From IMG/VR virus record IMGVR_UViG_3300027734_000050, positions 1 through 64,000 of that record: a DNA stretch of 64,000 nucleotides, one strand, 5' to 3'. Under the pieces are notes generated by a model. That model did no database searches and was not told where the DNA came from. It saw only the letters and a program-made list of their open reading frames with translations. Below are positions 5,774 through 20,465 of the stretch, in pieces; the first letter of the stretch is position 1; each line of letters opens with the position of its first letter. Source of the stretch: a virus. Its lineage: Duplodnaviria > Heunggongvirae > Uroviricota > Caudoviricetes. A program made the position numbers and the translations under genes.

Positions 5774-5803
5774 TTGACTCGAAACGGCTCTATGCTATAT
5801 AAT
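5774..5803 (+). promoter_or_regulatory. sigma70-type promoter (TTGACT ... TATAAT)
   Basis: TTGACTcgaaacggctctatgcTATATAAT ends about 7 nt before the ATG at 5810, so the mRNA may be leaderless. Confidence 0.45.
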
Positions 5804-5809
5804 AGGGCT

Positions 5810-6058
5810 ATGTTTAAAATCTACTACACAGATCCGGTGAGCGATGCGAGTCACTCACACAATGTTCTTACCCTGACCGAAGCCCTGCAATACACAGAAG
5901 GATGGCGGCGGATGGGCATGACTTTCGTGACCATGGTCAGTGAAAACCCCGATTCCGTGGGCCGCCCTGGTGTAGACTCAGTGGTGGATGGCAAGACTCC
6001 TGATGGAGTAGCCTACACCTGGAACAAGGCAAGTCGAATTGGAAAGACAAGGAAATAG
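5810..6058 (+). CDS. hypothetical protein (~82 aa)
   Basis: ATG at 5810 is the first start downstream of the promoter's -10 element. In frame with ORF 5774-6058. Confidence 0.4.
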   Translation: MFKIYYTDPVSDASHSHNVLTLTEALQYTEGWRRMGMTFVTMVSENPDSVGRPGVDSVVDGKTPDGVAYTWNKASRIGKTRK

Positions 6059-6059: not shown

Positions 6060-6527
6060 ATGCCAAAGTGTTATCAGTTAGTAGGTGTGCCCGGTTCGGG
6101 TAAAAGCACCTGGCATTCGGAACAGGACTGGTTGCAGACGGCTGCCTACATCAGCACGGATCGTTATGTAGAAGAATTCGCTAAGAATATGGGCAAGACC
6201 TACAGCGAAGTGTTCAAAGAAGTCATGCCTGAATGTGTGAAATACATGACCGGTGATGCAGTCCATGCCCGTGAAGCGGGTCAAGACATTGTGTGGGATC
6301 AAACTAGCACCACAGTTGCAAGCCGTTCTCGTAAGTTTGCTATGTTGCCTGACTATGAGCATATCGCTGTGGTGTTTGCTACACCTGAACCTGCTGAACT
6401 AGTAATGAGATTAGACAGTCGTTACGATTCAGGAAAAATTATTCCAGATCAAGTAGTACAAGATATGATCAACAATTGGGAAGAACCTACCCTAGAAGAA
6501 GGTTTTAAAGAAATTTGGAGAGCATAA
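6060..6527 (+). CDS. P-loop kinase (polynucleotide-kinase/zeta-toxin-like AAA_33 fold)
   Basis: Walker A GVPGSGKST at the N-terminus. Small (~155 aa) kinase fold. Confidence 0.6.
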   Translation: MPKCYQLVGVPGSGKSTWHSEQDWLQTAAYISTDRYVEEFAKNMGKTYSEVFKEVMPECVKYMTGDAVHAREAGQDIVWDQTSTTVASRSRKFAMLPDYEHIAVVFATPEPAELVMRLDSRYDSGKIIPDQVVQDMINNWEEPTLEEGFKEIWRA

Positions 6528-7117
6528 TGCCAGCAGTATTTTTGGTATCAGACACACATTTTGGCCACAAAGGTATGTGTACTTTCACGCGATCAGACGG
6601 CGTGACCAAGTTGCGTCCATGGGACACACCCGAAGAAATGGACGAAGCCATGGTCAAGGCCTGGAACGAGCGTGTGGGTCCCAAGGACAAGGTATATCAC
6701 TTGGGCGATGTGGTGATCAACCGCAAAAGTTTAGCCACCATGAGCCGCTTGAACGGCGACAAGGTGTTGATCCGTGGTAACCACGACATCTTCCCTGACG
6801 ACGAATATCGCAAGTATTTCCGCGAGTTGCGGGCATACCATGTGATGAACGGCATGATCTTGAGCCACATCCCTATCCATGAAGAATCATTGGGCAGGTT
6901 TGGTGTGAACATCCACGGTCACTTACATGCTGCTCGTGTGATGAAGCGTGGGCCAGCCTCGGGCGAATTTGTGAGTGCTGTGGTTGATCCACGGTATCAT
7001 TGTGTGTGCGTGGAGCATACAGACTTTGCTCCTATCTTGTTTGAGGATGTGATGAAGAGGATCACTGCCGAAGGTGGGACCATTGGATTCCGCAACGGCA
7101 ACGGTCCAACTATGTAA
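6527..7117 (+). CDS. calcineurin-like metallophosphoesterase
   Basis: Motifs DTHFGH, GDVV, GNHD and GHLH are the canonical metallophosphoesterase signatures. The start overlaps the kinase stop. Confidence 0.7.
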   Translation: MPAVFLVSDTHFGHKGMCTFTRSDGVTKLRPWDTPEEMDEAMVKAWNERVGPKDKVYHLGDVVINRKSLATMSRLNGDKVLIRGNHDIFPDDEYRKYFRELRAYHVMNGMILSHIPIHEESLGRFGVNIHGHLHAARVMKRGPASGEFVSAVVDPRYHCVCVEHTDFAPILFEDVMKRITAEGGTIGFRNGNGPTM

Positions 7118-7253
7118 GGTGGTCTTCTCGCCTGCTCCCTTTCACCCACACCGAGTGATACAGCAAAGGAGAAGGGTGAAAGGGGATTGAGCCGCAGGGA
7201 CCAAATGCCTGCGTGGGATTCGGTAACCCACATTTATTAGACAGTAAAACAAC

Positions 7254-8483
7254 ATGACCAACTTCTATCTAAGACAGTGGGATTATTTACATCACACCGT
7301 CCAACCATTTTATTGGACGGTGTTCAATCATGAGACTGATCAATCAACACGATTCAACTTCAAACATGACGCTATAGTTTACAGAAAAACTTTACCACAT
7401 GCAACATTGTATTTTCATTGGTACGAAGAACAGTTTTCTAAGCTAAATGTATCAATGGAACCTCCTGAGTCATTGGCTGAGTTATACAGACAGCGAGCAC
7501 AAGAATTACGAGATGCCTACAAATATCTTAGATTAAGTTTCAGTGGTGGTGCAGATAGCTTAACCGCGTTACACAGTTTTGTAGATAATAATATACATCT
7601 TGATGAGATTGTGGTTGTGGACTACTTTGATGGATCCAACTATGACGATCCAATGAAATCGTCTGGACGAGAAATTAAGTTACATGCACTGCCATATCTA
7701 AAACAAATCGCACATCTCATACCAAATACCAAGCTCACTGTGGTCAACACCACTGCCAAAGATGACAATGATATGTTTAATGATTTTTCGGATGACCCCG
7801 AGAAGCATCCAACTTTTGATACCTTGGAAGGGCAACTGCATTTTGGGGTAGAAACTTGGTCACTGGGCAAGTTCATGATGCAGACCCCTCGCGAAAGTTG
7901 TTGCGATATCCACGGTGGTAGCAAAGTCAAACTGTTCAAGAACCGAGATAAGTGGTATTTTTATTGGGTAGATGGTGCTATGTCTGATCTAAACATGTGT
8001 GCTGCCTATCCTGAAGATTTCTTCATCAGCCGAACCATACCCAACTTGTATCTCAAAACAGTTTACTTGTTGAAAAATTTTTACATATCTCAGAAGTTTG
8101 ATGATGTCACCATCAATGAGTTTCCAGATCATCCCAAGAATCACCCGGCCTTCAATGTAGGGCTAGGCAGGAATTTGGCACCTGCACTTGCCACATACAA
8201 GACGTATTTTTCATCGCACAACCCATTGGACTGGAAGAATCATTTTATATCAGGGTGGCATTCGACCTTGTTCTTCAAGAACGTCGTAAACACCCCCGAA
8301 GGAGACAAGTGGATAAAAAACTACAAGCAAAACATAACGTCTATCATCGCAACAGCCGGTGACGAGTGGAATGTGGATAAACTAGGCAACCCGGTACCGG
8401 CATTCGGGCGCAAAGGACACTTGAGCAAGTTCTATTGTCTCAATGATGGGCGAGCCTATGACTCAGTGGATGCTAAAAAATAA
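7254..8483 (+). CDS. PP-loop superfamily ATP pyrophosphatase (409 aa)
   Basis: LRLSFSGGADSLTALH is a SGGxDS PP-loop motif, as found in TilS, MnmA, QueC and NAD-synthetase. Confidence 0.55.
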   Translation: MTNFYLRQWDYLHHTVQPFYWTVFNHETDQSTRFNFKHDAIVYRKTLPHATLYFHWYEEQFSKLNVSMEPPESLAELYRQRAQELRDAYKYLRLSFSGGADSLTALHSFVDNNIHLDEIVVVDYFDGSNYDDPMKSSGREIKLHALPYLKQIAHLIPNTKLTVVNTTAKDDNDMFNDFSDDPEKHPTFDTLEGQLHFGVETWSLGKFMMQTPRESCCDIHGGSKVKLFKNRDKWYFYWVDGAMSDLNMCAAYPEDFFISRTIPNLYLKTVYLLKNFYISQKFDDVTINEFPDHPKNHPAFNVGLGRNLAPALATYKTYFSSHNPLDWKNHFISGWHSTLFFKNVVNTPEGDKWIKNYKQNITSIIATAGDEWNVDKLGNPVPAFGRKGHLSKFYCLNDGRAYDSVDAKK

Positions 8484-8956
8484 TTTGCCTTTTTGGCAAA
8501 AAATCGCAGAAAAAGTTGCGATCAATGGTTGACAAGAGATAAATAATCCTATACAATACATGCTATGAACCAGTCGATACATCATTTATCCCTCAAACCG
8601 CTGACACAGAGTCAGGGCGTCTGCCCCACCTTGTGGTTTGCGATTGAGATGAATTATGATCGTGCGACAGGGTCAGGGGTCCGAGGAGACCTAGTATAAC
8701 ATAGCGTATACTTAACTTCCAAAGGACCCCAGGACTAAACACCCTGGGGTTCGTCTTTTATAGTGTGGAGCAACGAGGGCTCACCCCGCACTTAAAACAT
8801 GGGGAAACGGGCGGCCTGTGGGATGAAACTCCTTTTGTGGAGTGAAAAATCACAGCGTATTAAAGCATATCGGTGGCGTCACAGATCCGGGTCGGGGTGG
8901 CAGCTAACACTCAATATGCTTTAATACACGCATTCCAAAGAGTGCGTAAATAATCA
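8484..8956 (+). other. 470-nt non-coding, highly structured region (candidate ncRNA / processing region)
   Basis: No ORF of 60 aa or more. Promoter TTGACA-17-TACAAT at 8528-8556. GC-rich hairpins include ccccagg...cctgggg at 8727-8749. Confidence 0.35.
8867..8927. repeat. 14-bp perfect inverted repeat (gtattaaagcatat / atatgctttaatac) around a 33-nt GC-rich loop
   Basis: Arms at 8867-8880 and 8914-8927. The aagcatat...atatgctt core also occurs in the tmRNA intervening-segment stem at 21403/21468. Confidence 0.6.
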
Positions 8957-9733
8957 ATGCCTGTATTCTTAGACTCAGTGATAGAGTTCTACATCACCAA
9001 TCAATGCAACCTGGCCTGCACCAACTGCAATAGGTTCAATGACCATGACTTTCGTGGACATTACTCATGGGAAGACTCAGCAGAGGCTGTTGAAGCATGG
9101 AGTAAACGCATCGATGCACCCATGCTCACCATCATTGGTGGAGAACCTAGCCTACATCCTGGATTGGAAACCTGGGTCTCAAATCTTCGTAGATTATGGC
9201 CCGACACTGAGATCATGATACAAAGCAACGGAACCAATCCAAAATTGGCTCGTGAACTTGATTTATGGACAAGATACCGCACAGGATGGGGTATAAGTGT
9301 ACACCAACCACAGATGAGGCACACATTGGAAAAACAATGGGATCAGATCACCCGAGGGTTTTTTGACAACATTGAATTCACTCCGGCTGCTGTGATTCCG
9401 CAAGGTGACGGGTTCACTGTACATCATAGTAATCCTGTAACAGCATTCAAGGCATGTACCATGCGGCACAGCCATACCATATTCCAAGGACGCTTGTATA
9501 AGTGTCCAGTGATGGCTGTATTGCCCGAGTTCCGCACTCAACATTCAGTTGAGATGGACTCAAGACAACAACAGTTGTTATCGCAGTATCAGCCTTTGAG
9601 TGCGGATTGTTTGGAACAACAGTTGATAGACTTTGTTGATACAAGACATCAACCGATCGATCAATGTGAATTTTGCCCTGGCGAATTTGATTTCCAGCCA
9701 GTGGTATTCCATAAAAGAAAAAAACTGCTCTGA
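8957..9733 (+). CDS. radical SAM protein (QueE/NrdG-like small rSAM)
   Basis: CNLACTNC is a CxxxCxxC motif at residues 17-24. IIGGEP motif also present. Confidence 0.65.
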   Translation: MPVFLDSVIEFYITNQCNLACTNCNRFNDHDFRGHYSWEDSAEAVEAWSKRIDAPMLTIIGGEPSLHPGLETWVSNLRRLWPDTEIMIQSNGTNPKLARELDLWTRYRTGWGISVHQPQMRHTLEKQWDQITRGFFDNIEFTPAAVIPQGDGFTVHHSNPVTAFKACTMRHSHTIFQGRLYKCPVMAVLPEFRTQHSVEMDSRQQQLLSQYQPLSADCLEQQLIDFVDTRHQPIDQCEFCPGEFDFQPVVFHKRKKLL

Positions 9734-9803
9734 TGGCGCAATTGGTAGACGCACTATCTTGAGGTGGTAGAAAGTGTGAGTTCGACTCTCACTCAGAGCA
9801 CCA
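9726..9803 (+). tRNA. tRNA, anticodon GAG (Leu-type anticodon but class I shape with a short variable loop)
   Basis: Acceptor GCTCTGA/TCAGAGC, discriminator A with CCA, T-loop GAGTTCGACTCTC and anticodon loop TTGAGGT. Confidence 0.6.
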
Positions 9804-9814
9804 AGAAATTATCG

Positions 9815-9893
9815 GCCCCGGTGGACAAATCTGGCAAAGTCGCTTCTCTCAAAAGGAAGAGTTCTGCGAGTTCAACTCTCGCCCGGGGTACCA
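9815..9893 (+). tRNA. tRNA, anticodon CAA (Leu-type anticodon, 3-bp D-stem, short variable loop)
   Basis: Acceptor GCCCCGG/CCGGGGT with ACCA end. T-arm GCGAGTTCAACTCTCGC. Anticodon stem CTTCT/GGAAG with loop CTCAAAA. Confidence 0.55.
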
Positions 9894-9900
9894 AATTATT

Positions 9901-9976
9901 GCAACTTTAGCTGATGTGGTCATAGCGCCGGTCTGAAGAGCCGGTGAACCAGGTTCGATCCCTGGAGGTTGCACCA
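9901..9976 (+). tRNA. tRNA-Phe (GAA)
   Basis: Acceptor GCAACTT/AGGTTGC. Anticodon loop CTGAAGA. T-loop GGTTCGATCC. CCA end. Confidence 0.75.
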
Positions 9977-9986
9977 TAAAACATGT

Positions 9987-10062
9987 TGGGGTGTCGCCTA
10001 GAGGCCTAAGGCACTGGTCTTTGAAATCAGTATCATGAGTTCGAATCTCATCTCCCCTGCCA
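9987..10062 (+). tRNA. tRNA-Gln (TTG)
   Basis: Gln-like TGGGGTG start. Anticodon stem CTGGT/ATCAG with loop CTTTGAA. T-arm ATGAGTTCGAATCTCAT. Ends GCCA. Two acceptor-stem mismatches. Confidence 0.55.
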
Positions 10063-10107
10063 TCTAACAAAGACCCGTCAACATGGCGGGTTATTAAAAA
10101 AGCAGTT

Positions 10108-10136
10108 GACCAGTATCGTGGTTGATGCTACAATAG
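10108..10136 (+). promoter_or_regulatory. sigma70-type promoter TTGACC-17-TACAAT
   Basis: ttgaccagtatcgtggttgatgctacaat lies upstream of tRNA-Glu. Confidence 0.5.
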
Positions 10137-10207
10137 AGACTAGTTAGAAAGAAGCACGGTGCATCGACGCTGTGCTGCAAGTTCGTTAAAAATTTCAGCA
10201 AGTATTT

Positions 10208-10282
10208 GCTCGGTTCGTCTATCGGTTAGGACGCTGCCCTTTCAAGGCGGAAAGACGAGTTCGATTCTCGTACCGAGTACCA
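10208..10282 (+). tRNA. tRNA-Glu (TTC)
   Basis: Acceptor GCTCGGT/ACCGAGT. Glu-like D-arm TCTATCGGTTAGGAC. Anticodon stem CTGCC/GGCGG with loop CTTTCAA. T-arm ACGAGTTCGATTCTCGT. CCA end. Confidence 0.8.
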
Positions 10283-10357
10283 TATTGAAGCACATTAAAA
10301 CACGCCCCTAGTAGCAGTAGCGAATCAAGGGTGGAAGGTTGAGTGTGCTTCAATATG
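10281..10357. repeat. 14-bp inverted repeat (catattgaagcaca / tgtgcttcaatatg) anchored on the CCA of tRNA-Glu, with a 49-nt loop
   Basis: Arms at 10281-10294 and 10344-10357. It joins the tRNA-Glu 3' end to the 5' end of the next tRNA-like element. Confidence 0.6.
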
Positions 10358-10422
10358 GTGATAGCTTAGTGGGAGAGTGCAGTCGTTGGCTGTGGGCACA
10401 GGTTCAAATCCTGTTCACTATT
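10355..10422 (+). pseudogene. degenerate tRNA-like element (acceptor and T-arm intact, no valid anticodon arm, no CCA)
   Basis: Acceptor ATGGTGA/TCACTAT. D-arm TAGCTTAGTGGGAGAGT. T-arm ACAGGTTCAAATCCTGT. Only 19 nt lie between the D-arm and T-arm, and these form a competing hairpin CTGTG/CACAG. Confidence 0.3.
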
Positions 10423-10434
10423 TCGTATTTTGCA

Positions 10435-10800
10435 AAAAGAAAACACTGTCATCTAGGACTTGTCGGGTGAATAAAACAGTTGGGTAAAAGTCCTTACGGC
10501 GAGTCGCTATATAAGAACACATTTCAGCGGGATAGACCGTGTTGGATAGTTTCTGTTTGGTACAGTATCCGAAGTGTGTTCCTATTTAGTAAAGAATCAA
10601 GTGGAAAGCAAGAGCCACAAAGTAAGCATCGCCGGGTCAGGAAATGTGTCCGGGACGTGTAGGCCGCGCAACCTATACAAACAACGATGGGGTAAGAGCC
10701 CTCATAACATTTTCGCCAAATTTAGGTCTCAAAGTGTTCATGGACGCACACAAGCCTGTCACGCTTGAAGAAGGGGATCGTTACCCCTTGGGACCGCCAA
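10435..10800 (+). other. ~365-nt non-coding spacer inside the tRNA array (possible ncRNA)
   Basis: Only short overlapping ORFs of 60-64 aa without RBS. Flanked by tRNA-like elements. Confidence 0.25.
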
Positions 10801-10806
10801 GTTTTT

Positions 10807-10944
10807 GCGCTGGATTGATATTGCGGTTGGAGTTGATCGCCCAATGGCAGACAGGTTTAATTCCTGTTAGGTGCACCAAGTTATGCAGTGATTGGAGAAG
10901 GCAGATGCCCCGTGCATCGCATACTAGTTGCCACAGAGGTTCGA
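10807..10944 (+). pseudogene. two degenerate tRNA-like elements, each ending ...GCACCAAGTT
   Basis: The elements at 10807-10878 and 10881-10944 each have a canonical T-arm (ACAGGTTTAATTCCTGT and AGAGGTTCGATTCCTTT) and a GCACCA 3' end. No convincing anticodon arm was found. Confidence 0.3.
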
Positions 10945-10969
10945 TTCCTTTGGCTGCACCAAGTTTTAT

Positions 10970-11048
10970 CTGTGTGTGAGAAAGTCCGGTCTAATCTACT
11001 CGCCTTGGAAGTGAGAAATCGTAGGTTCAAATCCTACCGCACAGACCA
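10970..11048 (+). tRNA. tRNA-like, anticodon TGG (Pro), non-canonical D-arm; possibly a pseudogene
   Basis: Acceptor CTGTGTG/CGCACAG. Anticodon stem CTCGC/GTGAG with loop CTTGGAA. T-arm GTAGGTTCAAATCCTAC. ACCA end. The 20-nt D region does not fold into a D-stem. Confidence 0.4.
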
Positions 11049-11259
11049 ATTTTTGAGAGTGTCAGCAAGAGAAAGTCACGCTGAAAAGCTTCTTCGAAGA
11101 GCTTGACAGTGTAACGCAACGGGGGGCGCGAATCCCCAGCAGCAATATAAGTGGACGTTGTGACAAGTATCCCAAGTGGCGTACCGAGACCTTGCCGGCC
11201 TTGTATAATAAGGTGAATGGTTCCGATAATATGGGCGGAACTACTCTCAAATTCAATCT

Positions 11260-11346
11260 GGAGACGTGTGCCGAGTGGCGAAGGCAGCTGACTGTAAATC
11301 AGTGACATAAGAAACACCGTAGGTTCGATCCCTACCGGCTCCACCA
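11260..11346 (+). tRNA. tRNA-Tyr (GTA), type II with long variable arm
   Basis: Acceptor GGAGACG/CGGCTCC. Anticodon stem GCTGA/TCAGT with loop CTGTAAA. Variable arm GACATAAGAAACACC. T-arm GTAGGTTCGATCCCTAC. CCA end. Confidence 0.75.
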
Positions 11347-11352
11347 TATTTC

Positions 11353-11427
11353 GGGGGATTAGTGATAATGGTAGCACATGTGCTTTGCAAGCATGAAGCA
11401 GGAGTTCGATTCTCCTATCCTCCACCA
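11353..11427 (+). tRNA. tRNA-Ala (TGC)
   Basis: Acceptor GGGGGAT/ATCCTCC has a G3:U70 pair. Anticodon loop TTTGCAA. T-arm AGGAGTTCGATTCTCCT. ACCA end. Confidence 0.75.
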
Positions 11428-12162
11428 TTACCGAAATGCACGTTGTCTGAATGCTTCACTGAATACGCCATCCACTCTCAACGAGTAGCAGGCTTGCGGT
11501 GCAGGATCTGACCCGTGATGATTATTGGTGTTGAACCAATTACAATTTCCTGATGAATAGATTTTTTGATCAGTTTCAACATCTAATAGATAAAATTTCT
11601 TCCGATCAGGAGCAAAGTCAATCCAGATGAATTCATCCGAAGCGGGGCGGCTATCATCTGCATAGTCGGTATGTATTGGACTATACCCGCCGGGATAGTT
11701 AATGAATAAAGTCGTGCGACCGTAGTCGCTAAAAATCTCTTGGCGATCAAGCCACTCATAGAAGAAGGCAAGTTGTATATCTTCTGGTAGCGCCACGCAT
11801 TCAGTGGCATGATGCTTGGTAGCGTAGTCTAATGCGTATCGACTGGTTATGGTAAATGTACATGCAGTAACATCTTTTTCAAATACAATGTAATTGGCAA
11901 ATTGATCGCATCTGATTAGATCAGCAACAACTTCTCGTAGGCTAGAGTCAGCGACCATGTCAGGGTTGTCTTCAAACTCATCTTGATAATCATGGGTGCC
12001 AAGACTACCATCTTTAAAAAGCGAACCGTAGAATTTGGTTGGCTTGAGCAGGTGATGATTTTTGGCAATAAATGCCGAGACATAAGGTTTGATTGCAAGG
12101 AGGCCGTTGAGGTCTATTAGATGGTCAAAATTTAAAAACGGTTGATTGTGTGCTAAGAACAT
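11428..12162 (-). CDS. cupin / 2OG-Fe(II)-oxygenase-like protein (aspartyl beta-hydroxylase-like)
   Basis: HTDYADD ... NWFNTNNHHG gives a possible His-x-Asp...His facial triad. It is the only minus-strand gene in the first half of the window. Confidence 0.35.
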   Translation of the reverse strand: MFLAHNQPFLNFDHLIDLNGLLAIKPYVSAFIAKNHHLLKPTKFYGSLFKDGSLGTHDYQDEFEDNPDMVADSSLREVVADLIRCDQFANYIVFEKDVTACTFTITSRYALDYATKHHATECVALPEDIQLAFFYEWLDRQEIFSDYGRTTLFINYPGGYSPIHTDYADDSRPASDEFIWIDFAPDRKKFYLLDVETDQKIYSSGNCNWFNTNNHHGSDPAPQACYSLRVDGVFSEAFRQRAFR

Positions 12163-12213
12163 AAAATATTTATTGCATGGTACTTTTTACTAAGTATTTT
12201 TAAGAGTTTATAT

Positions 12214-12292
12214 TCCGAGAAACCCGAGCTAGGTGCATGGGCGTGACTGTTAATCACTGGTTAGGTGGGTTCGAACCCCACACTCGGAGCCA
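12214..12292 (+). tRNA. tRNA-like, anticodon GTT (Asn), atypical D-arm
   Basis: Acceptor TCCGAGA/ACTCGGA with GCCA end. Anticodon stem GTGA/TCAC with loop CTGTTAA. T-arm GTGGGTTCGAACCCCAC. Confidence 0.5.
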
Positions 12293-12299
12293 AATTTTA

Positions 12300-12373
12300 G
12301 CCCTACTAGTACAATGGCAGTACACTGGTTTTGTAATCCTGTGATGGCAGTTCGATTCTGTCGTGGGGCACCA
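12300..12373 (+). tRNA. tRNA-Thr (TGT), weak anticodon stem
   Basis: Acceptor GCCCTAC/GTGGGGC. D-arm GTACAATGGCAGTAC. Anticodon loop TTTGTAA. T-arm GGCAGTTCGATTCTGTC. ACCA end. Confidence 0.6.
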
Positions 12374-12378
12374 CATAT

Positions 12379-13035
12379 ATGAAAAAAGCCGTGATCCTAG
12401 GCTGTAGCCATTCAGTTGGAGCAGAGATGCATCAAGAACCAGGATTGGTTTTTGACAGCTTCAATCAAGCCAACGACTATGAACAGACTCATTCTTATCC
12501 TGCTCAGATTGCACAGGTATTAGGATATGATCCAATCAATCTCAGCATATCAGGCGGCAGCAATGACGCCATGTTCAGACGGTTCACAGAACAAACTTTA
12601 ACACCCAACGACATAGTGATTGCTTGTTGGACAGGTGTGAATAGAAGTGAAATCTATGATAGCCAATGGATTGCAATGGCTCCGGGCGCAGTGCCAGATC
12701 AAGTCAATGCAGACTACTTTAAACAGTGGTTGTTGTATTCTGCCAACACTGAAGTAGGTATGTTGAATAAAACAAAAAACATCCTTGCACTCAATGCTCT
12801 GGCTCATGCACAAGGCATCCAAGTGATCAACATAGACAGTTTTTGGCCAGTGCCAGATGTTGCCTGGCCCAACTCAGTAGAGTGGGCTGTGAACATAGAT
12901 TTTATGGCATGGTGCCAACAACACAACTTTCCCCACACAGAGAAAGTTCATTTTTTCAAACCAGCACATGACTCGTTTGCCCAGCATGTGCTACAGAATA
13001 TTGCGGGTAGGGTGGCCACCACACCGGTCTCATAA
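12379..13035 (+). CDS. SGNH/GDSL-like hydrolase
   Basis: The N-terminal VILGCSHSVG is a GDS(L) block with a Ser nucleophile. ISGGSND is a block II-like motif. Confidence 0.45.
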   Translation: MKKAVILGCSHSVGAEMHQEPGLVFDSFNQANDYEQTHSYPAQIAQVLGYDPINLSISGGSNDAMFRRFTEQTLTPNDIVIACWTGVNRSEIYDSQWIAMAPGAVPDQVNADYFKQWLLYSANTEVGMLNKTKNILALNALAHAQGIQVINIDSFWPVPDVAWPNSVEWAVNIDFMAWCQQHNFPHTEKVHFFKPAHDSFAQHVLQNIAGRVATTPVS

Positions 13036-13075
13036 GCCAGGTGCATCGGCAGTTCGAATCTGTCACCCGCATCCA
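13002..13075 (+). tRNA. tRNA-like, anticodon CAT (Met/Ile2), small D-arm; overlaps the 3' end of the preceding CDS
   Basis: Acceptor TGCGGGT/ACCCGCA. Anticodon loop CTCATAA. T-arm GGCAGTTCGAATCTGTC. TCCA end. Confidence 0.4.
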
Positions 13076-13195
13076 AGTCAAGTCCATGCGTCACTCAAAC
13101 TGAATGAGTGTTTACCCGTCAGGGAGTCTCTGGACAGTTTTTCAAGTCCATACAGCCTCGATCTGATGGGGCCTCGTCACTGGACTGATTTCTTT

Positions 13196-13272
13196 ACCGC
13201 CTTGGCTCAACTGGATAGAGCACTGGATTACGAATCCGGGGGTTGGGAGTTCGAATCTCTCAGGTGGTACCA
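13196..13272 (+). tRNA. tRNA-Arg (ACG)
   Basis: Acceptor ACCGCCT/AGGTGGT. D-arm GCTCAACTGGATAGAGC. Anticodon stem CTGGA/TCCGG with loop TTACGAA. T-arm GGGAGTTCGAATCTCTC. ACCA end. Confidence 0.8.
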
Positions 13273-13277
13273 TTCAT

Positions 13278-13351
13278 GGCCCTTTAGTTAAAAGGTATAA
13301 CAGACGCTTGATAAGCGTCAGTCGGAGGATCGTTACCTCCCGGGGCTACCA
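13278..13351 (+). tRNA. tRNA-Ile (GAT) with non-canonical T-loop ATCGTTA
   Basis: Acceptor GGCCCTT/CGGGGCT. D-stem GTTA/TAAC. Anticodon stem GACGC/GCGTC with loop TTGATAA. T-stem GGAGG/CCTCC. ACCA end. Confidence 0.55.
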
Positions 13352-13356
13352 AACAG

Positions 13357-13385
13357 TTGACAACATTGTCAAAATGTTGTATAAT
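13357..13385 (+). promoter_or_regulatory. perfect-consensus sigma70 promoter TTGACA-17-TATAAT
   Basis: ttgacaacattgtcaaaatgttgtataat. Confidence 0.55.
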
Positions 13386-13490
13386 AGATTTTTTACACAG
13401 GAGCACAGCATGAAACATGCTAAACCATAGTGTCAATCCAGATCCCATGTAGGTCCGGGTTGGCACGTGAAAGACAATTTTACATACCAA

Positions 13491-13565
13491 CCCTCTAAGA
13501 TGTTAAGGCAGCATGCCGGACTCTTAATCCGTGACGTCCGAGTTCAAATCTCGGTGGAGGGACCA
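13491..13565 (+). tRNA. tRNA-Lys (CTT)
   Basis: Acceptor CCCTCTA/TGGAGGG. Anticodon loop CTCTTAA. T-arm CCGAGTTCAAATCTCGG. ACCA end. Confidence 0.65.
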
Positions 13566-13569
13566 ATAT

Positions 13570-13645
13570 GGGGCTATAGTTAAGCGGTTATAACATCACC
13601 CTTTTAAGGTGTAAGACCTCGGTTCGAATCCGAGTGGCCCTACCA
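13570..13645 (+). tRNA. tRNA-Lys (TTT)
   Basis: Acceptor GGGGCTA/TGGCCCT. D-stem GTTA/TAAC. Anticodon loop CTTTTAA. T-arm CTCGGTTCGAATCCGAG. ACCA end. Confidence 0.7.
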
Positions 13646-13796
13646 TTTAGTGAAACACTTTGCCCAAGCGAGAAACACATCTGTGGAGTCGCTCTCTGCA
13701 CGAGGATGTGAAAAGTCGGAATTATCCTTGCCCCCGCTCTTGGGGATGCGAATTAGGAAAAGGCAAAGGGAAGAGACAGAGTGTTTCACTAAATGG
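13643..13796. repeat. 17-bp inverted repeat (ccatttagtgaaacact / agtgtttcactaaatgg) anchored on the CCA of tRNA-Lys, with a ~120-nt GC-rich loop
   Basis: Arms at 13643-13659 and 13780-13796. A third copy of agtgaaaca lies at 13913. Confidence 0.6.
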
Positions 13797-14016
13797 TAAA
13801 ATTGAAGTTGACCTAGATCTATCCTGTGATGGATATGAGCAAGCGTGAAATATACGACATGTTGCCGGTGAGTCTGCGAGACTTGTTCTGGTCATGCCGA
13901 GTGCCTCAATATAGTGAAACAACAATCTCATCATGTGGAAGATGTAATACTTGCGTGACCTTGAAAGAACAAGGCATTCGCAAATAGAAAGCAAGGCATA
14001 ATTCGTACTATATAGT

Positions 14017-15549
14017 ATGATGTATGACGCTATTATTTTTACAGATTGTTGGGATATGATCGGCAATATCCCGGCGATTGGTGCATACAAATGTGCCCAT
14101 TCTCTAAGAAAAAATGGATACACTTGCTTGGTAGTAAATCATGTTGGAGAGTTTGAGTTTGAGGAACTGGTTGATCTATTGGACCAGGCCATTGGAAATA
14201 ATACTCGTCTGATTGGGTTTAGCACTACTTTCATATCCAACAAACTTGAATTAGAATCCAGCCTCTTCCCAGATGGGTTCTCCAGCCGTAATGAAATTTT
14301 GTTACCTCAAGGTGTAGAATTTGAGAGAAAAATAATAAAGTACATCCGAGATAAAAACAATCTTGTTAAAACTGTAGTGGGTGGCACAAAAGCCACGGTG
14401 AATTATTCAAATCGAGACATAGATTATGTATGTATCGGATACAGCGAAGTTAGTATTGTAAATCTCATGGATCACTTGATTAAAGAGATTGATCTTCAGA
14501 ACAGTCATCGAAACATTTTTGGTCGTGTTATCTTAGATGATAGATATGCACCATCATACGAATTCTCCAAGGAAGATATGATATGGATTGACACTGATGT
14601 GGTGAACCATAAATGTTTGCCTATCGAGATCGGTCGTGGATGTATTTTTCAATGCAAATTTTGTTCCTATCCATTGATCGGGAAGAAGAATCTAGACTAT
14701 GTAAAATCCTACGATTGTTTACAACATGAATTACAAAGAAACTATGAGCAGTTTGGTGTAAAAAATTATCTCATCATGGACGACACGTTTAATGACAATG
14801 TTGAAAAACTAAACCGCATTGAGTCTGTAGTGTCAAAATTAGATTTCCAACCGGAATTTTGGGCATACATCAGACTAGATCTACTTTGCACCAGACCCGA
14901 AACTTTGGATATGTTGTATCGCATTGGTGTTAGATCCATGACGTTTGGTATAGAAACGATGAATCCCAGTGCTGCCAAAAGCATCGGCAAAGGGTTTGAT
15001 CGAAATAAACTCGTTGCCAAACTAGATGAAATTGCGGAAAAATATCCCGACATGTACACAGGAAGTGGCTTTATAGTGGGACTTCCTGGCGAGACACCAG
15101 ATGATTTAAGAAAAACTTCTGATCGATTGATTTCTAGAGAAATTAAGTTACATAATTGGCAATGGGCACCATTGTTTATTGAACGTACAGGAACAGTGAC
15201 TTATACCAGTGAATTCGGACGTGACTTTGAAAAATATGGTTATGTGGATCAGACTCCATTGGATTCGTCTCGGATTGTCAACTGGAAATCTAATGTCATG
15301 ACTCGTGATGAATCTACAGAATTAGCAAATGAACTTAACTCCGTAGCCCAAGATCATGCAGGATTATATCCAGGTAGCATGACAGAAATTAGCACATATG
15401 GAAAATTTCAATGGAAAGATATCATGAAAAACTATCGAAAATTTTCTAAGTTGAATGTCCATAACAACCTACTCGTAGAACATCTTAGACCGAAGTTTAT
15501 GCAAGAATACAAGAAAAAGTTGTTTGATCTGGTTGCAGAGAAATCTTAA
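14017..15549 (+). CDS. B12-binding-domain radical SAM protein (class B rSAM-like)
   Basis: The N-terminal part is a Rossmann-like B12-binding region. GRGCIFQCKFCS is a CxxxCxxC motif at about residue 208. 510 aa. Confidence 0.6.
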   Translation: MMYDAIIFTDCWDMIGNIPAIGAYKCAHSLRKNGYTCLVVNHVGEFEFEELVDLLDQAIGNNTRLIGFSTTFISNKLELESSLFPDGFSSRNEILLPQGVEFERKIIKYIRDKNNLVKTVVGGTKATVNYSNRDIDYVCIGYSEVSIVNLMDHLIKEIDLQNSHRNIFGRVILDDRYAPSYEFSKEDMIWIDTDVVNHKCLPIEIGRGCIFQCKFCSYPLIGKKNLDYVKSYDCLQHELQRNYEQFGVKNYLIMDDTFNDNVEKLNRIESVVSKLDFQPEFWAYIRLDLLCTRPETLDMLYRIGVRSMTFGIETMNPSAAKSIGKGFDRNKLVAKLDEIAEKYPDMYTGSGFIVGLPGETPDDLRKTSDRLISREIKLHNWQWAPLFIERTGTVTYTSEFGRDFEKYGYVDQTPLDSSRIVNWKSNVMTRDESTELANELNSVAQDHAGLYPGSMTEISTYGKFQWKDIMKNYRKFSKLNVHNNLLVEHLRPKFMQEYKKKLFDLVAEKS

Positions 15550-15569
15550 AAGTGTTATAATAGTTCTAT

Positions 15570-15645
15570 GGTGTCATTAGTGTAGTGGCCTGCACCCTGC
15601 TCTGTGAAAGCGGTAGTACCGGATCGATACCGGTATGGCACCCCA
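15570..15645 (+). tRNA. tRNA-His (GTG) with encoded G-1
   Basis: Extra 5' G precedes the acceptor GTGTCAT/ATGGCAC. Discriminator is C. Anticodon stem CTGCT/AGCGG with loop CTGTGAA. T-arm ACCGGATCGATACCGGT. CCA end. Confidence 0.8.
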
Positions 15646-15652
15646 AATTTTC

Positions 15653-15727
15653 AGTTGTGTGACGTAGATGGATGCGTACCGCCCTCATAAGGCGAGGAGG
15701 TTGGATCGATACCAACCACAACTACCA
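15653..15727 (+). tRNA. tRNA-Met/Ile2 (CAT)
   Basis: Perfect acceptor AGTTGTG/CACAACT. Anticodon loop CTCATAA. T-arm GTTGGATCGATACCAAC. ACCA end. Confidence 0.8.
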
Positions 15728-15730
15728 CAT

Positions 15731-15813
15731 GCCCTGGTGACTTATGCAAATTGGCACAGCTACTGGTCTTAGAAGCCAGGTTTTTGCGGGTTCGAGTCCC
15801 GCCTAGGGCACCA
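15731..15813 (+). tRNA. tRNA, 83 nt, anticodon TAG (Leu) with oversized D region; atypical
   Basis: Acceptor GCCCTGG/CTAGGGC. Anticodon stem CTGGT/GCCAG with loop CTTAGAA. T-arm GCGGGTTCGAGTCCCGC. ACCA end. Confidence 0.5.
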
Positions 15814-15870
15814 AGATGACTCGCCTTGATTGATGGCGTATAATAGGAAAAGTAGTCAATCACAAATCTC

Positions 15871-15945
15871 GGGGGATTGGTATAGTTGGTAACATACCGC
15901 CATGGCATGGCGGAGTCAGCGGCTCGAATCCGCTATCCTCCACCA
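15871..15945 (+). tRNA. tRNA-Ala (GGC)
   Basis: Acceptor GGGGGAT/ATCCTCC, identical to the other Ala tRNA including G3:U70. Anticodon stem CCGCC/GGCGG with loop ATGGCAT. T-arm AGCGGCTCGAATCCGCT. ACCA end. Confidence 0.75.
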
Positions 15946-15952
15946 ACAACAT

Positions 15953-16042
15953 AGAGGATGCAGTAGGATGGTTCCTACACCTGTTTGGAAAACAGGCGAC
16001 TGGCGTGAGCTGGTCGGGGTTCAATTCCTCCTTCCTCTGCCA
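15953..16042 (+). tRNA. tRNA-Ser (GGA), type II
   Basis: Acceptor AGAGGAT/TTCCTCT. Discriminator G. Anticodon stem CCTGT/ACAGG with loop TTGGAAA. Long variable arm. T-loop GGGGTTCAATTCC. CCA end. Confidence 0.7.
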
Positions 16043-16064
16043 CAACAATAGAAAGGAACAAGTC

Positions 16065-16493
16065 ATGAATGAATTTGATGTATTAGTGGGCAAGCGTATA
16101 AATGGCTTGTTTATAGCCAACGACAAGTGGACACTGGTATTCCGTGATGTGTCCGGGCGCCGTTATCGTTTTGACACCGAAAATGATTGCTGCAACTCTG
16201 TGTGGTTTAACCATGTGACAGGTGCAAACATCCTGGGTGAAGGCAATACCTTCGATCTGCTACGCGGTGCAGAAGTGTTATCAGTAGAAGCCAAGGGCTG
16301 GGATGAAAACCGCAGCGACGAAGATGGATACGAAGTGGTTCAAGATGCGTTCTGGACCATACGCACCAACCGTGGCTACATAGACCTTGAAGTGCGTAAC
16401 AGCCACAATGGTTACTATGGTGGCAGCGTGAGCTATAGCGGCACCAATGTGGGTGAGTTGGCCGACATGGTACAGATCACCGAAGACTTCTAA
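16065..16493 (+). CDS. hypothetical protein (~142 aa)
   Basis: Start at MNEFDV after the RBS AAAGGAACAAG. The upstream part of the 16005 ORF overlaps tRNA-Ser and was trimmed. Confidence 0.5.
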   Translation: MNEFDVLVGKRINGLFIANDKWTLVFRDVSGRRYRFDTENDCCNSVWFNHVTGANILGEGNTFDLLRGAEVLSVEAKGWDENRSDEDGYEVVQDAFWTIRTNRGYIDLEVRNSHNGYYGGSVSYSGTNVGELADMVQITEDF

Positions 16494-16570
16494 CTCTGTA
16501 TGGCGCAGCCCGGTAGCGCACTTGCATGGGGTGCAAGGGGTCGCAAGTTCGAATCTTGCTACAGAGACCA
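16494..16570 (+). tRNA. tRNA-Pro (GGG)
   Basis: Perfect acceptor CTCTGTA/TACAGAG. Anticodon stem CTTGC/GCAAG with loop ATGGGGT. T-arm GCAAGTTCGAATCTTGC. ACCA end. Confidence 0.75.
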
Positions 16571-16571
16571 C

Positions 16572-16645
16572 AGACTCTTAGTTCAATGGAAGAACGATAC
16601 CCTGACATGGTATAGAAACAAGTTCAATTCTTGTAGAGTCTACCA
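16572..16645 (+). tRNA. tRNA-Val (GAC)
   Basis: Perfect acceptor AGACTCT/AGAGTCT. Anticodon stem ATACC/GGTAT with loop CTGACAT. T-arm ACAAGTTCAATTCTTGT. ACCA end. Confidence 0.8.
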
Positions 16646-16730
16646 CTTGACAGGTATTGCGAATCCTGCTATAATTGTGGCATAGATAGAAAACATCTAT
16701 CCGTGCTCTTTAAAAATTTCGTAAGTTTTT

Positions 16731-16804
16731 GCCTCGTTAGTTTAATGGTAGAACTCCGTCTTTACACGGCGGTTGCGGCAGTTCAATTCTGTCACGAGGT
16801 ACCA
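16731..16804 (+). tRNA. tRNA-Val (TAC)
   Basis: Acceptor GCCTCGT/ACGAGGT. D-arm GTTTAATGGTAGAAC. Anticodon stem CCGTC/GGCGG with loop TTTACAC. T-arm GGCAGTTCAATTCTGTC. ACCA end. Confidence 0.8.
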
Positions 16805-16807
16805 AAT

Positions 16808-16885
16808 GTAGCGGTGGCGGAGAGGTCCAACGCAAGAGTCTGCAAAACTCTAACACCGTGAGTTCAAATCTCACCCGCTACTCCA
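16808..16885 (+). tRNA. tRNA-Cys (GCA)
   Basis: Perfect acceptor GTAGCGG/CCGCTAC. Discriminator U. Anticodon stem AGAGT/ACTCT with loop CTGCAAA. T-arm GTGAGTTCAAATCTCAC. CCA end. Confidence 0.7.
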
Positions 16886-17011
16886 TATATGAACACATTC
16901 ACGGTGGGGATACCAGCAACTGGACGCAGGGGCTATCCGAAAGAGCAGGCATGCTTACCGAAAGCTGGAGACGAGTGTGTTCTTATATGGACAGTTGGTC
17001 CAACAAAATAA

Positions 17012-17085
17012 CTCGGTATAGTGAAATGGTATCACCCGTGCTTTGGGAGCATGAAGCGGAAGTTCGATTCTTCCTACCGAGACCA
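17012..17085 (+). tRNA. tRNA-Pro (TGG)
   Basis: Perfect acceptor CTCGGTA/TACCGAG. D-stem GTGA/TCAC. Anticodon stem CGTGC/GCATG with loop TTTGGGA. T-arm GGAAGTTCGATTCTTCC. ACCA end. Confidence 0.75.
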
Positions 17086-17091
17086 AACAAC

Positions 17092-17178
17092 GCGACTGTG
17101 GCGAAATAGGTAGACGCCTCAGACTTAAAATCTGATGTCCGTAAGGGCGTACCGGTTCGATTCCGGTCAGTCGTACCA
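17092..17178 (+). tRNA. tRNA-Leu (TAA), type II
   Basis: Acceptor GCGACTG/CAGTCGT. D-arm GCGAAATAGGTAGACGC. Anticodon stem TCAGA/TCTGA with loop CTTAAAA. Long variable arm TGTCCGTAAGGGCGT. T-arm ACCGGTTCGATTCCGGT. ACCA end. Confidence 0.8.
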
Positions 17179-17180
17179 GA

Positions 17181-17255
17181 CTGGCGTTAGTATAATGGAT
17201 AATACAGCGGTCTTCTACACCGTGAATATGGGTTCGATTCCTGTACGCCGGACCA
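17181..17255 (+). tRNA. tRNA-Arg (TCT)
   Basis: Acceptor CTGGCGT/ACGCCGG. Anticodon stem GCGGT/ACCGT with loop CTTCTAC. T-loop GGGTTCGATTCC. ACCA end. Confidence 0.7.
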
Positions 17256-17263
17256 GAATATTG

Positions 17264-17354
17264 CCAGCGAGACTGGGTAGTCAGAGAGGTCTTATAAGCC
17301 TTTTAGCGCCAGATTAGCGTTCTTGAGAGAGTTCGAGTCTCTCCGCTGGTACCA
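17264..17354 (+). tRNA. tRNA, 91 nt type II-like, anticodon loop CTTATAA (TAT, Ile-AUA?) - identity uncertain
   Basis: Acceptor GCCAGCG/CGCTGGT. T-arm GAGAGTTCGAGTCTCTC. ACCA end. Candidate anticodon stem GAGGT/GCCTT. The long extra arm is poorly paired. Confidence 0.5.
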
Positions 17355-17365
17355 AACTGTAATGT

Positions 17366-17388
17366 GTAAGTGAGTAAGTAAGTAAAAT
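17366..17388. repeat. simple (GTAA)n-like repeat between tRNAs
   Basis: gtaagtgagtaagtaagtaaaat. Confidence 0.5.
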
Positions 17389-17462: not shown

Positions 17463-17478
17463 ACAAAGAAAGTAAATC

Positions 17479-20455: not shown

Positions 20456-20465
20456 AACAACATAA

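Follow-up and report, generated by a model that had tools for sequence, protein, structure and literature searches.

The genes for a P-loop kinase and a metallophosphoesterase upstream of a tRNA array in this viral DNA probably constitute a translationally coupled RNA end-healing module, whereas the PP-loop and radical SAM genes that follow them appear to be independent accessory genes. Repair of the ends of cut tRNA is the most likely role of the pair.

Organization of the locus

The window analyzed here is the whole 64,000-nt stretch of viral DNA, and all four ORFs listed in an earlier sequence-only reading of it, together with the Walker A, metallophosphoesterase, and SGGADS motifs and the radical SAM gene, are present at the coordinates given there (Table 1). 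The Pfam scan matched the kinase to AAA_33 (3.9e-16), the phosphoesterase to Metallophos (1.5e-5), and the radical SAM ORF to Radical_SAM (2e-10). The TAA stop codon of the kinase gene (6525-6527) shares one base with the ATG of the phosphoesterase gene (TAATG), which confirms the previously noted overlap. Homologue alignments favor ATG 6060 and ATG 6527 as start codons over upstream TTGs. The small orf94 stops 1 nt short of the kinase ATG and gave no match in Pfam and PHROG scans. It is a frequent neighbor of the kinase/phosphoesterase pair, with homologues lying 5′ of the kinase gene in 17 related loci.

Table 1. Features at and around the kinase/phosphoesterase locus of the window.
Feature	Position	Strand	Description
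orf94	5774..6058	+	Small conserved ORF; real start probably ATG 5810
Kinase ORF	6060..6527	+	ATG 6060; 155 aa; GVPGSGKST
Phosphoesterase ORF	6527..7117	+	ATG 6527; 196 aa; motifs SDTHFGH, LGD, GNHD, SH, GHLH
Intergenic region	7118..7253	+	Three hairpins; borders the inserted PP-loop cassette on the left
PP-loop ORF	7254..8483	+	409 aa; SFSGGADS
Promoter and candidate small RNA	8529..8762	+	Sigma-70-like promoter (8529-8557), then conserved ~195-nt transcript
Structured RNA	8764..8952	+	~185 nt; six helices
Radical SAM ORF	8957..9733	+	258 aa; CNLACTNC
tRNA array	9727..21065	+	tRNAs with interspersed accessory ORFs (ARAGORN and Rfam)

The start of the tRNA array overlaps the stop codon of the radical SAM gene, and a permuted tmRNA comes after the array (ARAGORN, Rfam). 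The array indeed adjoins the module as proposed earlier, although the number of tRNA genes, put there at about 40, is 36 plus one extra tRNA-Met upstream, at 3924. Co-location of the pair with tRNA genes may simply reflect an accessory region prone to insertion, a point against a role of the pair in tRNA repair.

The kinase and phosphoesterase families

In a search of the PDB, the kinase profile matched Pnkp1 (7.7e-10), CthPnk (3.7e-9), PSTK (1e-8), and T4 Pnk (2.2e-8), the polynucleotide kinases and PSTK together ranging from 8e-10 to 6e-8, and mammalian PNKP followed at 1e-4. Kinases acting on polynucleotides or tRNA scored 5 to 7 orders of magnitude above shikimate, gluconate, and adenylate kinases; the best small-molecule kinase was shikimate kinase at 0.017. 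This clear separation led us to reject a dNMP or shikimate kinase identity, and the earlier proposal of a polynucleotide kinase holds: the profile assigns the protein to the polynucleotide 5′-kinase clade (T4 Pnk/CthPnk/Pnkp1). PSTK, an aminoacyl-tRNA kinase, nearly equals the true polynucleotide kinases in score, which counts against the end-healing reading.

The kinase was aligned to T4 Pnk and CthPnk, with the roles of their active-site residues taken from PMC2831316. The P-loop is intact (GVPGSGKST, residues 9-17, with G9, P11, G14, and K15 invariant in the family), and the general-base Asp is present as the invariant D34, which aligns with T4 D35 and Cth D38. Further equivalents are T82 in WDQTS (T4 T86), the lid arginines R117/R121 (T4 R122/R126), and a nucleoside pocket formed by I128-P129-V132 (T4 V131-P132-V135). 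The Arg of the acceptor 3′-phosphate site (T4 R38, Cth R41) is absent; a near-invariant valine, V37, stands at the aligned position, so the acceptor site differs from that of T4 Pnk and CthPnk, a replacement that weighs against the end-healing module. Its family and remaining active-site residues suggest that the protein is a putative 5′-OH RNA kinase, which may perform the healing half of RNA repair.

The phosphoesterase clearly belongs to the aq_1665/PHROG 547 family, matching phrog_547 at 6.9e-48, with aq_1665 (1xm7) as the sole match of its profile in the PDB (1.5e-18). The binuclear metal-ligand motifs I-V are invariant in the family (D9xH11, GD61, GNHD84-87, H114, and GH132xH134). Neither lambda-Pase nor the CthPnkp phosphatase appeared in the profile search of the PDB at E≤1, and motif II reads LGDVV, without the DRG of the GDxxDRG that, along with GNHE, characterizes both. 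Profile and motif thus place the enzyme outside the lambda-phosphatase clade of Pnkp, and a homologue of the Pnkp phosphatase domain was rejected. The two ORFs had been thought to mirror the kinase and phosphatase domains of Pnkp; this is borne out for the kinase, whereas the phosphatases are related only at the superfamily level. None of the members of the aq_1665/PHROG 547 family has been assigned a substrate, and membership therefore implies no particular function; most phage members, unlike the one here, do not adjoin a kinase. We consider the protein a putative 2′,3′-cyclic-phosphate/3′-phosphate end-healing enzyme.

Linkage of the pair and association with RNA ligases

The kinase and phosphoesterase genes form a conserved, evolutionarily coupled pair, and only these two of the four genes form a unit. 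They lie at most 1.2 kb apart in 25 of 30 related viral loci of the window's lineage, whichever of them comes first, and the linkage survives order inversions and two phosphoesterase subtypes. Most relatives carry a Cys-based DSP-PTPase in addition. The pair often occurs inside tRNA arrays, with tRNAs within 6 kb of the kinase gene in 16 of the 26 loci scanned.

In other phages, among more distant relatives, genes of both families show linkage to Rnl1 ligases. Of the 80 viral loci that an Rnl1 alignment retrieved, 59 have a kinase homologue within 4 kb and nine have a phosphoesterase of the same family. Ligase-kinase-phosphoesterase cassettes were identified in Synechococcus phage BUCT-ZZ01 and in four contigs (L197, L200, L203, and L207), the phosphoesterases of which are 49-56% identical to that of the window. 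In the cultured phages RpAliso and Thrax4, kinase homologues overlap or come after genes for Rnl1-type RNA ligases.

The window yielded no RNA ligase among the ORFs that were scanned with Pfam and PHROG, nor did Rnl1 and RtcB queries find one by tblastn against its whole length, in agreement with the sequence-only reading. Likewise, no locus of the window's own lineage contains an RNA ligase within 6 kb of the kinase, an observation that also counts against the module.

Proposed function of the pair

We infer the substrates of the two enzymes, their division of labor, and the ligase as follows. The kinase would phosphorylate the 5′-OH end left by RNA cleavage, using the gamma-phosphate of an NTP; the cleaved RNA would most plausibly be a tRNA that a host nuclease has cut in its anticodon loop. 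The metallophosphoesterase would open and remove the 2′,3′-cyclic phosphate or 3′-phosphate on the other fragment. The resulting 5′-phosphate and 3′-OH ends could then be sealed by an ATP-dependent RNA ligase, encoded elsewhere by the phage or supplied by the host. The tRNAs of the array would be the likely clients.

Alternatively, the pair might heal or process DNA ends during replication, repair, or host DNA breakdown, the kinase acting on 5′-OH DNA and the phosphoesterase as a PdeM-like nuclease or a 3′-phosphatase. T4 Pnkp and mammalian PNKP, the latter among the kinase matches, act on DNA, and the lack of an RNA ligase near the pair in the window's lineage would fit such a role. In NCBIfam, the phosphoesterase matched only the ligase-associated DNA-damage-response endonuclease PdeM (2.9e-9), although this match is weak, with 36.7 bits vs a cut-off of 150. 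That the phosphoesterase family lacks a characterized member, and that its only other family-level match is this weak one to a DNA-repair nuclease, counts against the end-healing module. Considering that the ligases linked to the kinase family are Rnl1-type RNA ligases and that the pair sits inside tRNA arrays, we regard a function in DNA-end processing as improbable.

About equally unlikely is a role on non-polynucleotide substrates, in which the phosphoesterase (with the DSP phosphatase of the relatives) would degrade signaling nucleotides or, like lambda phosphatase, dephosphorylate proteins in host takeover or anti-defence, and the substrate of the kinase would be a nucleotide or some other small molecule. 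The phosphoesterase family is present in 2263 phage records vs 103 with the kinase, which means that its general role cannot depend on this kinase, and the frequent DSP-PTPase and the missing acceptor-site arginine of the kinase point in the same direction. Cyclic-nucleotide degradation has been predicted for other calcineurin-like phage enzymes (jumbo-phage review, PMC7824862). However, the kinase profile is clearly apart from small-molecule kinases, the kinase retains the residues that form the nucleoside pocket in T4 Pnk, and both families are linked to Rnl1 ligases. Furthermore, if kinase and phosphatase shared a target group, a futile cycle would be expected, whereas the end healing that we favor employs them on different ends.

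PP-loop, non-coding, and radical SAM elements

Apart from the SFSGGADS of the PP-loop ORF, no SGGxDS occurs in any of the six frames of the window; SGGADS occupies residues 97-102, and S97, G99, D101, and S102 are invariant in the family. The Pfam scan of this ORF returned nothing, including no Asn_synthase match. In the fold comparison AsnB and beta-lactam synthetase were closest, with 254 aligned residues vs 159 for TilS, at 6-9% identity. Neither a family-level sequence or fold match to TilS/MnmA nor tRNA-binding domains were found. The previously suggested TilS/MnmA-like tRNA modifier was rejected on this comparison, an asparagine-synthetase-like match being the outcome that the suggestion itself had set against it. 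The protein belongs to a large unannotated phage family, and its fold is probably that of an asparagine-synthetase-B-like synthetase, which would make it a predicted adenylating enzyme.

Gene arrangement identifies the PP-loop gene as a movable passenger cassette outside the kinase/phosphoesterase unit. It is missing from this site in the closest relative and is located elsewhere in others. Only 2 of 30 loci have one of its homologues within 6 kb of the kinase, and the conserved genomic partners of the family are TctC and DctP solute-binding proteins. Two loci with a kinase 95% identical to that of the window (L010 and L011) contain the phosphoesterase gene, then both intergenic segments, and after them the gene for the radical SAM protein, but no PP-loop gene at the site; in these, a segment 93% identical to 7118-7238 is followed directly by the homologue of 8490-8956. 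The block of homology of the cassette spans approximately 7218-8504. The hairpin region at its left border has a fold z-score of only -1.67. In L004 and L013 the arrangement is different again, and the PP-loop gene of L004 lies between two tRNA-Leu genes.

The 473 bp at 8484-8956 are a "gap" in name only, as they contain a promoter-like site and two non-coding elements that are conserved. The promoter (TTGACA-17-TACAAT) scores 11/12, and the transcript after it, a candidate small RNA, ends in a hairpin and a T-run. L013, L010, and L004 all conserve this region, and its terminal hairpin shows compensatory changes; a 44-codon ORF in the region is not conserved in L004. The second element gave nothing in an Rfam scan at E≤1, and its covariance model found 10 copies, in which both partners change in 25 of the 42 pairs and 97% of cells are paired, values reached by none of 500 shuffles. 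Copies of this previously undescribed structured RNA in relatives lie inside tRNA arrays and abut the 5′ end of a tRNA.

The radical SAM protein has the CxxxCxxC cluster, the fold, and the C-terminal cysteines of the SpeY/BtrN class, the last of these (C167, C183, C237, and C240) being invariant, as expected for an auxiliary cluster. These features identify it as a predicted SpeY/BtrN-like twitch dehydrogenase, the substrate of which is probably a sugar or cyclitol. The window contains at least nine radical SAM genes, and no conserved link of this one to the other three genes was found in related loci. It is a passenger without link to the repair pair, and both it and the PP-loop gene share with the pair, by chance, the insertion-prone region that heads the tRNA array.

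A single tRNA repair-and-modification toolkit of all four genes, with the PP-loop protein modifying anticodons (TilS/MnmA) or adenylylating and the radical SAM protein modifying tRNA, would agree with their common strand and position directly 5′ of the tRNA array and with the tRNA-Leu genes flanking the PP-loop gene of L004. Synteny and folds contradict it, the partners of the PP-loop family and the number of radical SAM genes likewise, and we consider it very unlikely; the kinase/phosphoesterase pair is what stands of the toolkit proposed earlier, its other two genes being unrelated passengers. Least credible is a PSTK- or Kti12-type kinase whose substrate would be a phage tRNA, aminoacylated or modified in some other way, instead of broken ends: despite the PSTK score, one source that calls a kinase homologue Kti12, and the adjoining large tRNA array, the 155-aa protein is a kinase domain only and would have no room for the C-terminal tRNA-binding domain of PSTK (chains of 259-260 aa), the array contains no tRNA-Sec, and the partner genes encode the phosphoesterase and, in relatives, RNA ligases.

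Comparison with known systems

The radical SAM protein shares CxxxCxxC and C-terminal cysteines with SpeY (7wzv) and BtrN (4m7s) but is only 21% identical to them and is encoded by a phage, in a genome rich in sugar-nucleotide enzymes. Different from AsnB, beta-lactam, and carbapenam synthetase domains, the PP-loop protein lacks an Ntn glutaminase domain and has instead a 60-residue alpha/beta N-terminal domain of its own preceding the PP-loop domain, in addition to its TctC/DctP partners.

The best-scoring relatives of the kinase belong to the Pnkp/Hen1 and Pnkp1-Rnl-Hen1 systems (C. thermocellum Pnkp; Capnocytophaga Pnkp1, 4xrp). Bacterial Pnkp and the module of the window have in common the pairing of a P-loop 5′-kinase with a binuclear metallophosphoesterase, and Hen1 adjoins the kinase homologue in phage XacN1. 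However, bacterial Pnkp combines kinase, lambda-phosphatase-type phosphatase, and ligase domains in one polypeptide, whereas the window has separate ORFs and an aq_1665-type enzyme; neither a ligase domain nor a Hen1 methyltransferase was found in the window.

Repair of tRNA by T4 Pnkp and Rnl1 counters PrrC. T4 and the phage of the window are both large and carry tRNA genes, the active-site residues of T4 Pnk align with those of the kinase, and kinase relatives show coupling to ligases of the Rnl1 type. In T4, however, kinase and HAD (DxDxT) phosphatase form a single fusion protein, with R38 in place of the valine, and the window has no Rnl1 gene. The kinase domains of phage PNK-HD fusions (Bacillus phage Thrax4, and Campylobacter phage proteins annotated as "polyA polymerase"), with which we take the RM378-type polynucleotide kinase to group, are homologous to the kinase at 30-35% identity. 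These fusions carry an HD phosphatase in cis, in contrast to the separate metallophosphoesterase of the window, which shows that phosphatase modules are interchangeable around the kinase.

Locus Organization

The kinase, phosphoesterase, PP-loop and radical SAM ORFs, which the sequence-only reading had combined into one toolkit for tRNA repair and modification, were all recovered at the positions proposed there. The kinase stop codon TAA and the phosphoesterase ATG share one base (TAATG), and Pfam searches returned AAA_33 for the kinase (3.9e-16), Metallophos for the phosphoesterase (1.5e-5) and Radical_SAM for the radical SAM ORF (2e-10). With its stop codon, the radical SAM ORF runs 7 nt into the first tRNA-Leu gene (9727–9733), so that mRNA and tRNA precursor overlap. 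The permuted tmRNA that closes the tRNA array is of betaproteobacterial type, a clue to the phage host. An SPFH/Band-7 gene follows the tmRNA; earlier proposals regard SPFH modules as RNA-repair scaffolds. An unusually long tRNA-Ile(TAT) of 90–92 nt is kept across these phages, and one relative (L058) additionally carries a tRNA with anticodon CTA, predicted to be a suppressor. Near-identical DNA was not found among sequenced phages; the kin of the window are uncultured large phages, mostly from freshwater, with contigs of up to about 340 kb.

Features of the window and of related loci (L-numbers denote IMG/VR viral loci or contigs compared with the window)
Feature	Location	Strand	Remarks
Rubrerythrin gene	4448–4951	+	Adjoins amidotransferase-like gene
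Class-I glutamine-amidotransferase-like gene, stand-alone	5095–5772	+	BPL_N 2.3e-15; GICMG nucleophile elbow; CHPE motif
orf94	5774–6058		Small conserved ORF upstream of kinase
Kinase	6060–6527		155 aa; GVPGSGKST
Phosphoesterase	6527–7117		196 aa
PP-loop gene	7254–8483		409 aa; sole SGGxDS of the window
Sigma-70 promoter-like site, strong, near-consensus	8529–8557	+	Precedes conserved transcript region
Conserved transcript region, about 195 nt	within 8529–8762	+	Hairpin and T-run at end
Structured RNA, about 185 nt, six helices	8764–8952	+	Covariance model; directly after the ~195-nt region
Structured RNA in relatives	L004 1211–1389; L010 11500–11680; L013 7328–7510; L043 4570–4755; L058 9626–9769; L060 10592–10760		Covariance model
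Radical SAM gene next to the array	8957–9733		258 aa; CNLACTNC
Radical SAM genes of the window	8957, 14017, 19403, 45554, 46830, 48038, 49291, 51883, 54313		One B12-binding, two SPASM types
tRNA array	9727–21065		36 tRNAs
Long tRNA-Ile(TAT)	17263–17354	+	
Long tRNA-Ile(TAT) in relatives	L004 8723–8814; L028 141–230; L043 2751–2840; L058 11570–11660		
Permuted tmRNA	21285–21691	+	Tag ANDEQFALAA
SPFH/Band-7 gene	21749–22606	+	Follows tmRNA
DSP-PTPase / DUF2828-DUF7788 neighbourhood in relatives	for example L023 1394–1906; L022 242–1654		

A Conserved Kinase and Phosphoesterase Pair

A profile of 22 kinase homologues matched, in the PDB, Pnkp1 of the Pnkp1-Rnl-Hen1 complex (7.7e-10), the Clostridium thermocellum Pnkp kinase domain (3.7e-9), PSTK (1e-8), T4 Pnk (2.2e-8) and mammalian PNKP (1e-4). 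Shikimate kinase, the highest-ranking of the small-molecule kinases, reached 0.017, so that a dNMP or shikimate kinase is not what the profile points to and the proposed polynucleotide-kinase type is upheld. With active-site roles taken from PMC2831316, alignment to T4 Pnk and CthPnk showed that the general base is kept (D34, T4 D35), as are T82 (T86), the lid arginines R117/R121 (R122/R126) and the nucleoside pocket I128-P129-V132 (V131-P132-V135), whereas one defining residue is missing: the arginine that contacts the acceptor 3′-phosphate (R38 in T4 Pnk, R41 in CthPnk) is replaced by a near-invariant valine.

All metal-ligand motifs of the phosphoesterase are invariant in both of its subtypes, and it strongly matches PHROG 547 (6.9e-48). 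Its profile found a sole relative, the uncharacterised structural-genomics protein aq_1665 (1xm7; 1.5e-18); lambda phosphatase and the CthPnkp phosphatase were both missing at E ≤ 1. The suggested likeness to the Pnkp phosphatase therefore extends to chemistry and superfamily and stops short of family. This phosphoesterase family occurs in 2263 phage records, compared with 103 for the kinase.

Linkage of the two genes was assessed in 30 IMG/VR loci whose kinase is 55–92% identical to that of the window. A phosphoesterase of one of the two subtypes (74–94% and 32–38% identity) lies within 1.2 kb of the kinase, upstream or downstream, in 25 of these loci, and truncated contigs account for three of the five loci without one. 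The pair is a real conserved module. Of the 26 loci scanned for tRNAs, 16 have them within 6 kb of the kinase, and in one (L028) tRNA-Cys and tRNA-Leu flank the pair. Just upstream of the pair, 22 of the 30 loci, with most of L014–L038 among them, encode a DSP-PTPase of the Cys-based type, about 170 aa long (HCHAGICRSG; Pfam Tc-R-P 1.5e-6, PTP-SAK 1.9e-3); a DUF2828/DUF7788 vWA-like protein is present in 13 and orf94 in 17. The DSP-PTPase and DUF2828 genes are both absent from the window. A TROVE/Ro-like identity of the DUF2828 protein of these relatives is a lead only, and a PDB search for it returned no match.

Association With RNA Ligases and Predicted Function

The closest kinase homologues in cultured phages are annotated as polynucleotide kinases. 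Homologues overlap or follow an Rnl1-type ligase gene in Ruegeria phage RpAliso (39% identity) and in Bacillus phage Thrax4 (30%), where an HD domain is fused to the kinase; the XacN1 kinase gene precedes those for Hen1 (Hen1_N 5e-59) and for a metallophosphoesterase of a different kind. Synechococcus phage BUCT-ZZ01 encodes an Rnl1-type ligase (RNA_lig_T4_1 5e-18), a kinase homologue, three small ORFs and a phosphoesterase 56% identical to that of the window. Among the 80 IMG/VR loci listed from an Rnl1 alignment search, 59 have a kinase homologue (33–46% identity) no more than 4 kb away, in most cases immediately downstream, and nine have a phosphoesterase of the window's family. A clean cassette of ligase, kinase and phosphoesterase is seen in L197 (RNA_lig_T4_1 3e-35; AAA_33 2.4e-17; phosphoesterase 49% identical). 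Such gene linkage in other phages is the strongest evidence that both families act in RNA end healing.

The window's own lineage shows no RNA ligase within 6 kb of the kinase, and none was found across the 64 kb of the window, as the sequence-only reading had noted. By eye, the Rnl1-locus contigs shared none with the kinase-bearing contigs of the lineage, a comparison made uninformative by the ceiling of 80 loci. A survey records that calcineurin-like and HD phosphatases sometimes take the place of the HAD enzyme usual in jumbo-phage RNA repair (PMC7824862). The pair probably provides the end-healing half of RNA repair in the phage, with tRNA as the putative target.

PP-Loop and Radical SAM Genes

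A single four-gene toolkit is not retained, as the PP-loop and radical SAM genes are unrelated passengers. The PP-loop protein has no sequence match in Pfam, PHROG, NCBIfam or the PDB, profile searches included, and none by tblastn among sequenced phages. Its family profile, searched against 1.84 billion representatives, collected 1842 clusters (50% identity, E ≤ 0.001), all of about 360–430 aa, and the 150 best matches listed all belong to the same family, with no bridge to a known one. Annotated matches among viral predicted structures are to "asparagine synthase", which speaks against the proposed TilS/MnmA-like protein. We infer an adenylate-forming amidoligase acting on a carboxylate; nothing links the protein to tRNA.

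The gene is a movable cassette. In L010/L011, whose kinase is 95% identical, the phosphoesterase, homologues of 7118–7238 and 8490–8956 and the radical SAM gene are present and the PP-loop gene is missing. In L004 (PP-loop protein 91% identical) it separates tRNA-Leu(gag) from tRNA-Leu(caa), two genes that adjoin each other in the window, and the phosphoesterase lies 8 kb away without a kinase. The family occurs in at least 478 IMG/VR loci. In a sample of 80 (L046–L125), a 184-aa protein homologous to window 4005–4415 is followed by one or two PP-loop paralogues, often a tandem duplicate, then by a TctC-like binding protein (encoded immediately downstream in 30 of 80) and a DctP-family binding protein. 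A role of the amidotransferase-like gene as ammonia donor for the PP-loop enzyme is not supported, because it accompanies the pair in loci that lack the PP-loop gene (L010, L013, L017 and L020); in L010 the rubrerythrin gene travels with the pair as well.

The radical SAM fold is SpeY/BtrN-like, with tRNA and queuosine enzymes at 7–8 in the comparison. Five invariant cysteines beyond CxxxCxxC fit an auxiliary cluster. The neighbours of homologues with about 50% identity are genes of NifU/IscA type and for ribonucleotide reductase and not repair genes. SpeY and BtrN oxidize hydroxyls on aminocyclitol or sugar intermediates, and a carbohydrate role is therefore our best guess by analogy. The window contains at least nine radical SAM genes, alongside sugar-nucleotide enzymes. 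Those at 45–56 kb adjoin sugar-nucleotide, carbamoyltransferase, AMP-binding and TctC-like genes, which suggests a large biosynthetic cluster. A RiPP cluster formed by the PP-loop and radical SAM genes, with a 44-codon ORF at 8577 as precursor, was rejected: RiPP maturases fall far behind in the fold comparison, L010 lacks the PP-loop gene, the ORF is not conserved in L004 and its substitutions sit in hairpin loops.

Non-Coding Elements

The 44-codon ORF lies in the transcript region within 8529–8762; its indels are all in-frame, and a small RNA is more likely here than a peptide. For the adjacent structured RNA, five copies were used to build a covariance model, which recovered ten in the compared loci, including divergent ones. 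Both sides changed in 25 of 42 pairs and 97% of cells are paired, figures biased toward structure as the alignment was fitted to its own model; shuffled and slid controls came nowhere near. The intergenic RNAs of 8484–8956 match no Rfam family, with nothing at E ≤ 1 for the structured RNA. In relatives, the structured RNA lies within tRNA arrays and ends 0–5 nt 5′ of a tRNA.

Comparison With Known Systems

Healing of 2′,3′-cyclic-phosphate or 3′-phosphate RNA ends would be the first function put forward for aq_1665/phrog_547 phosphoesterases, which occur in more than 2,200 sequenced phages, and the pair would be a further example of phosphatase modules (HAD, HD, DSP and metallophosphoesterase) freely exchanged around one kinase. 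Two by-products are a family of asparagine-synthetase-like PP-loop proteins, very large and lacking annotation, paired with solute-binding proteins in phages, and a covariation-supported structured RNA family located in phage tRNA arrays.

In phages, both tRNA arrays and RNA repair enzymes are held to oppose host tRNA-cutting nucleases, and their physical interleaving here offers a tractable test of joint action. The lineage combines a pair built into the tRNA array, joined in most relatives by a DSP phosphatase, with no linkage to a ligase and with a structured RNA nearby. A new tRNA-array-associated RNA maintenance system instead of plain T4-style heal-and-seal, in which the ~185-nt RNA would serve as scaffold, decoy or substrate much as Y RNA does for Rsr, seems improbable. 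Set against known repair systems, the kinase and phosphoesterase pair, read as the healing half of a repair pathway, is new in its split genes, its different phosphoesterase family, its placement within the tRNA array and its lack of a linked ligase.
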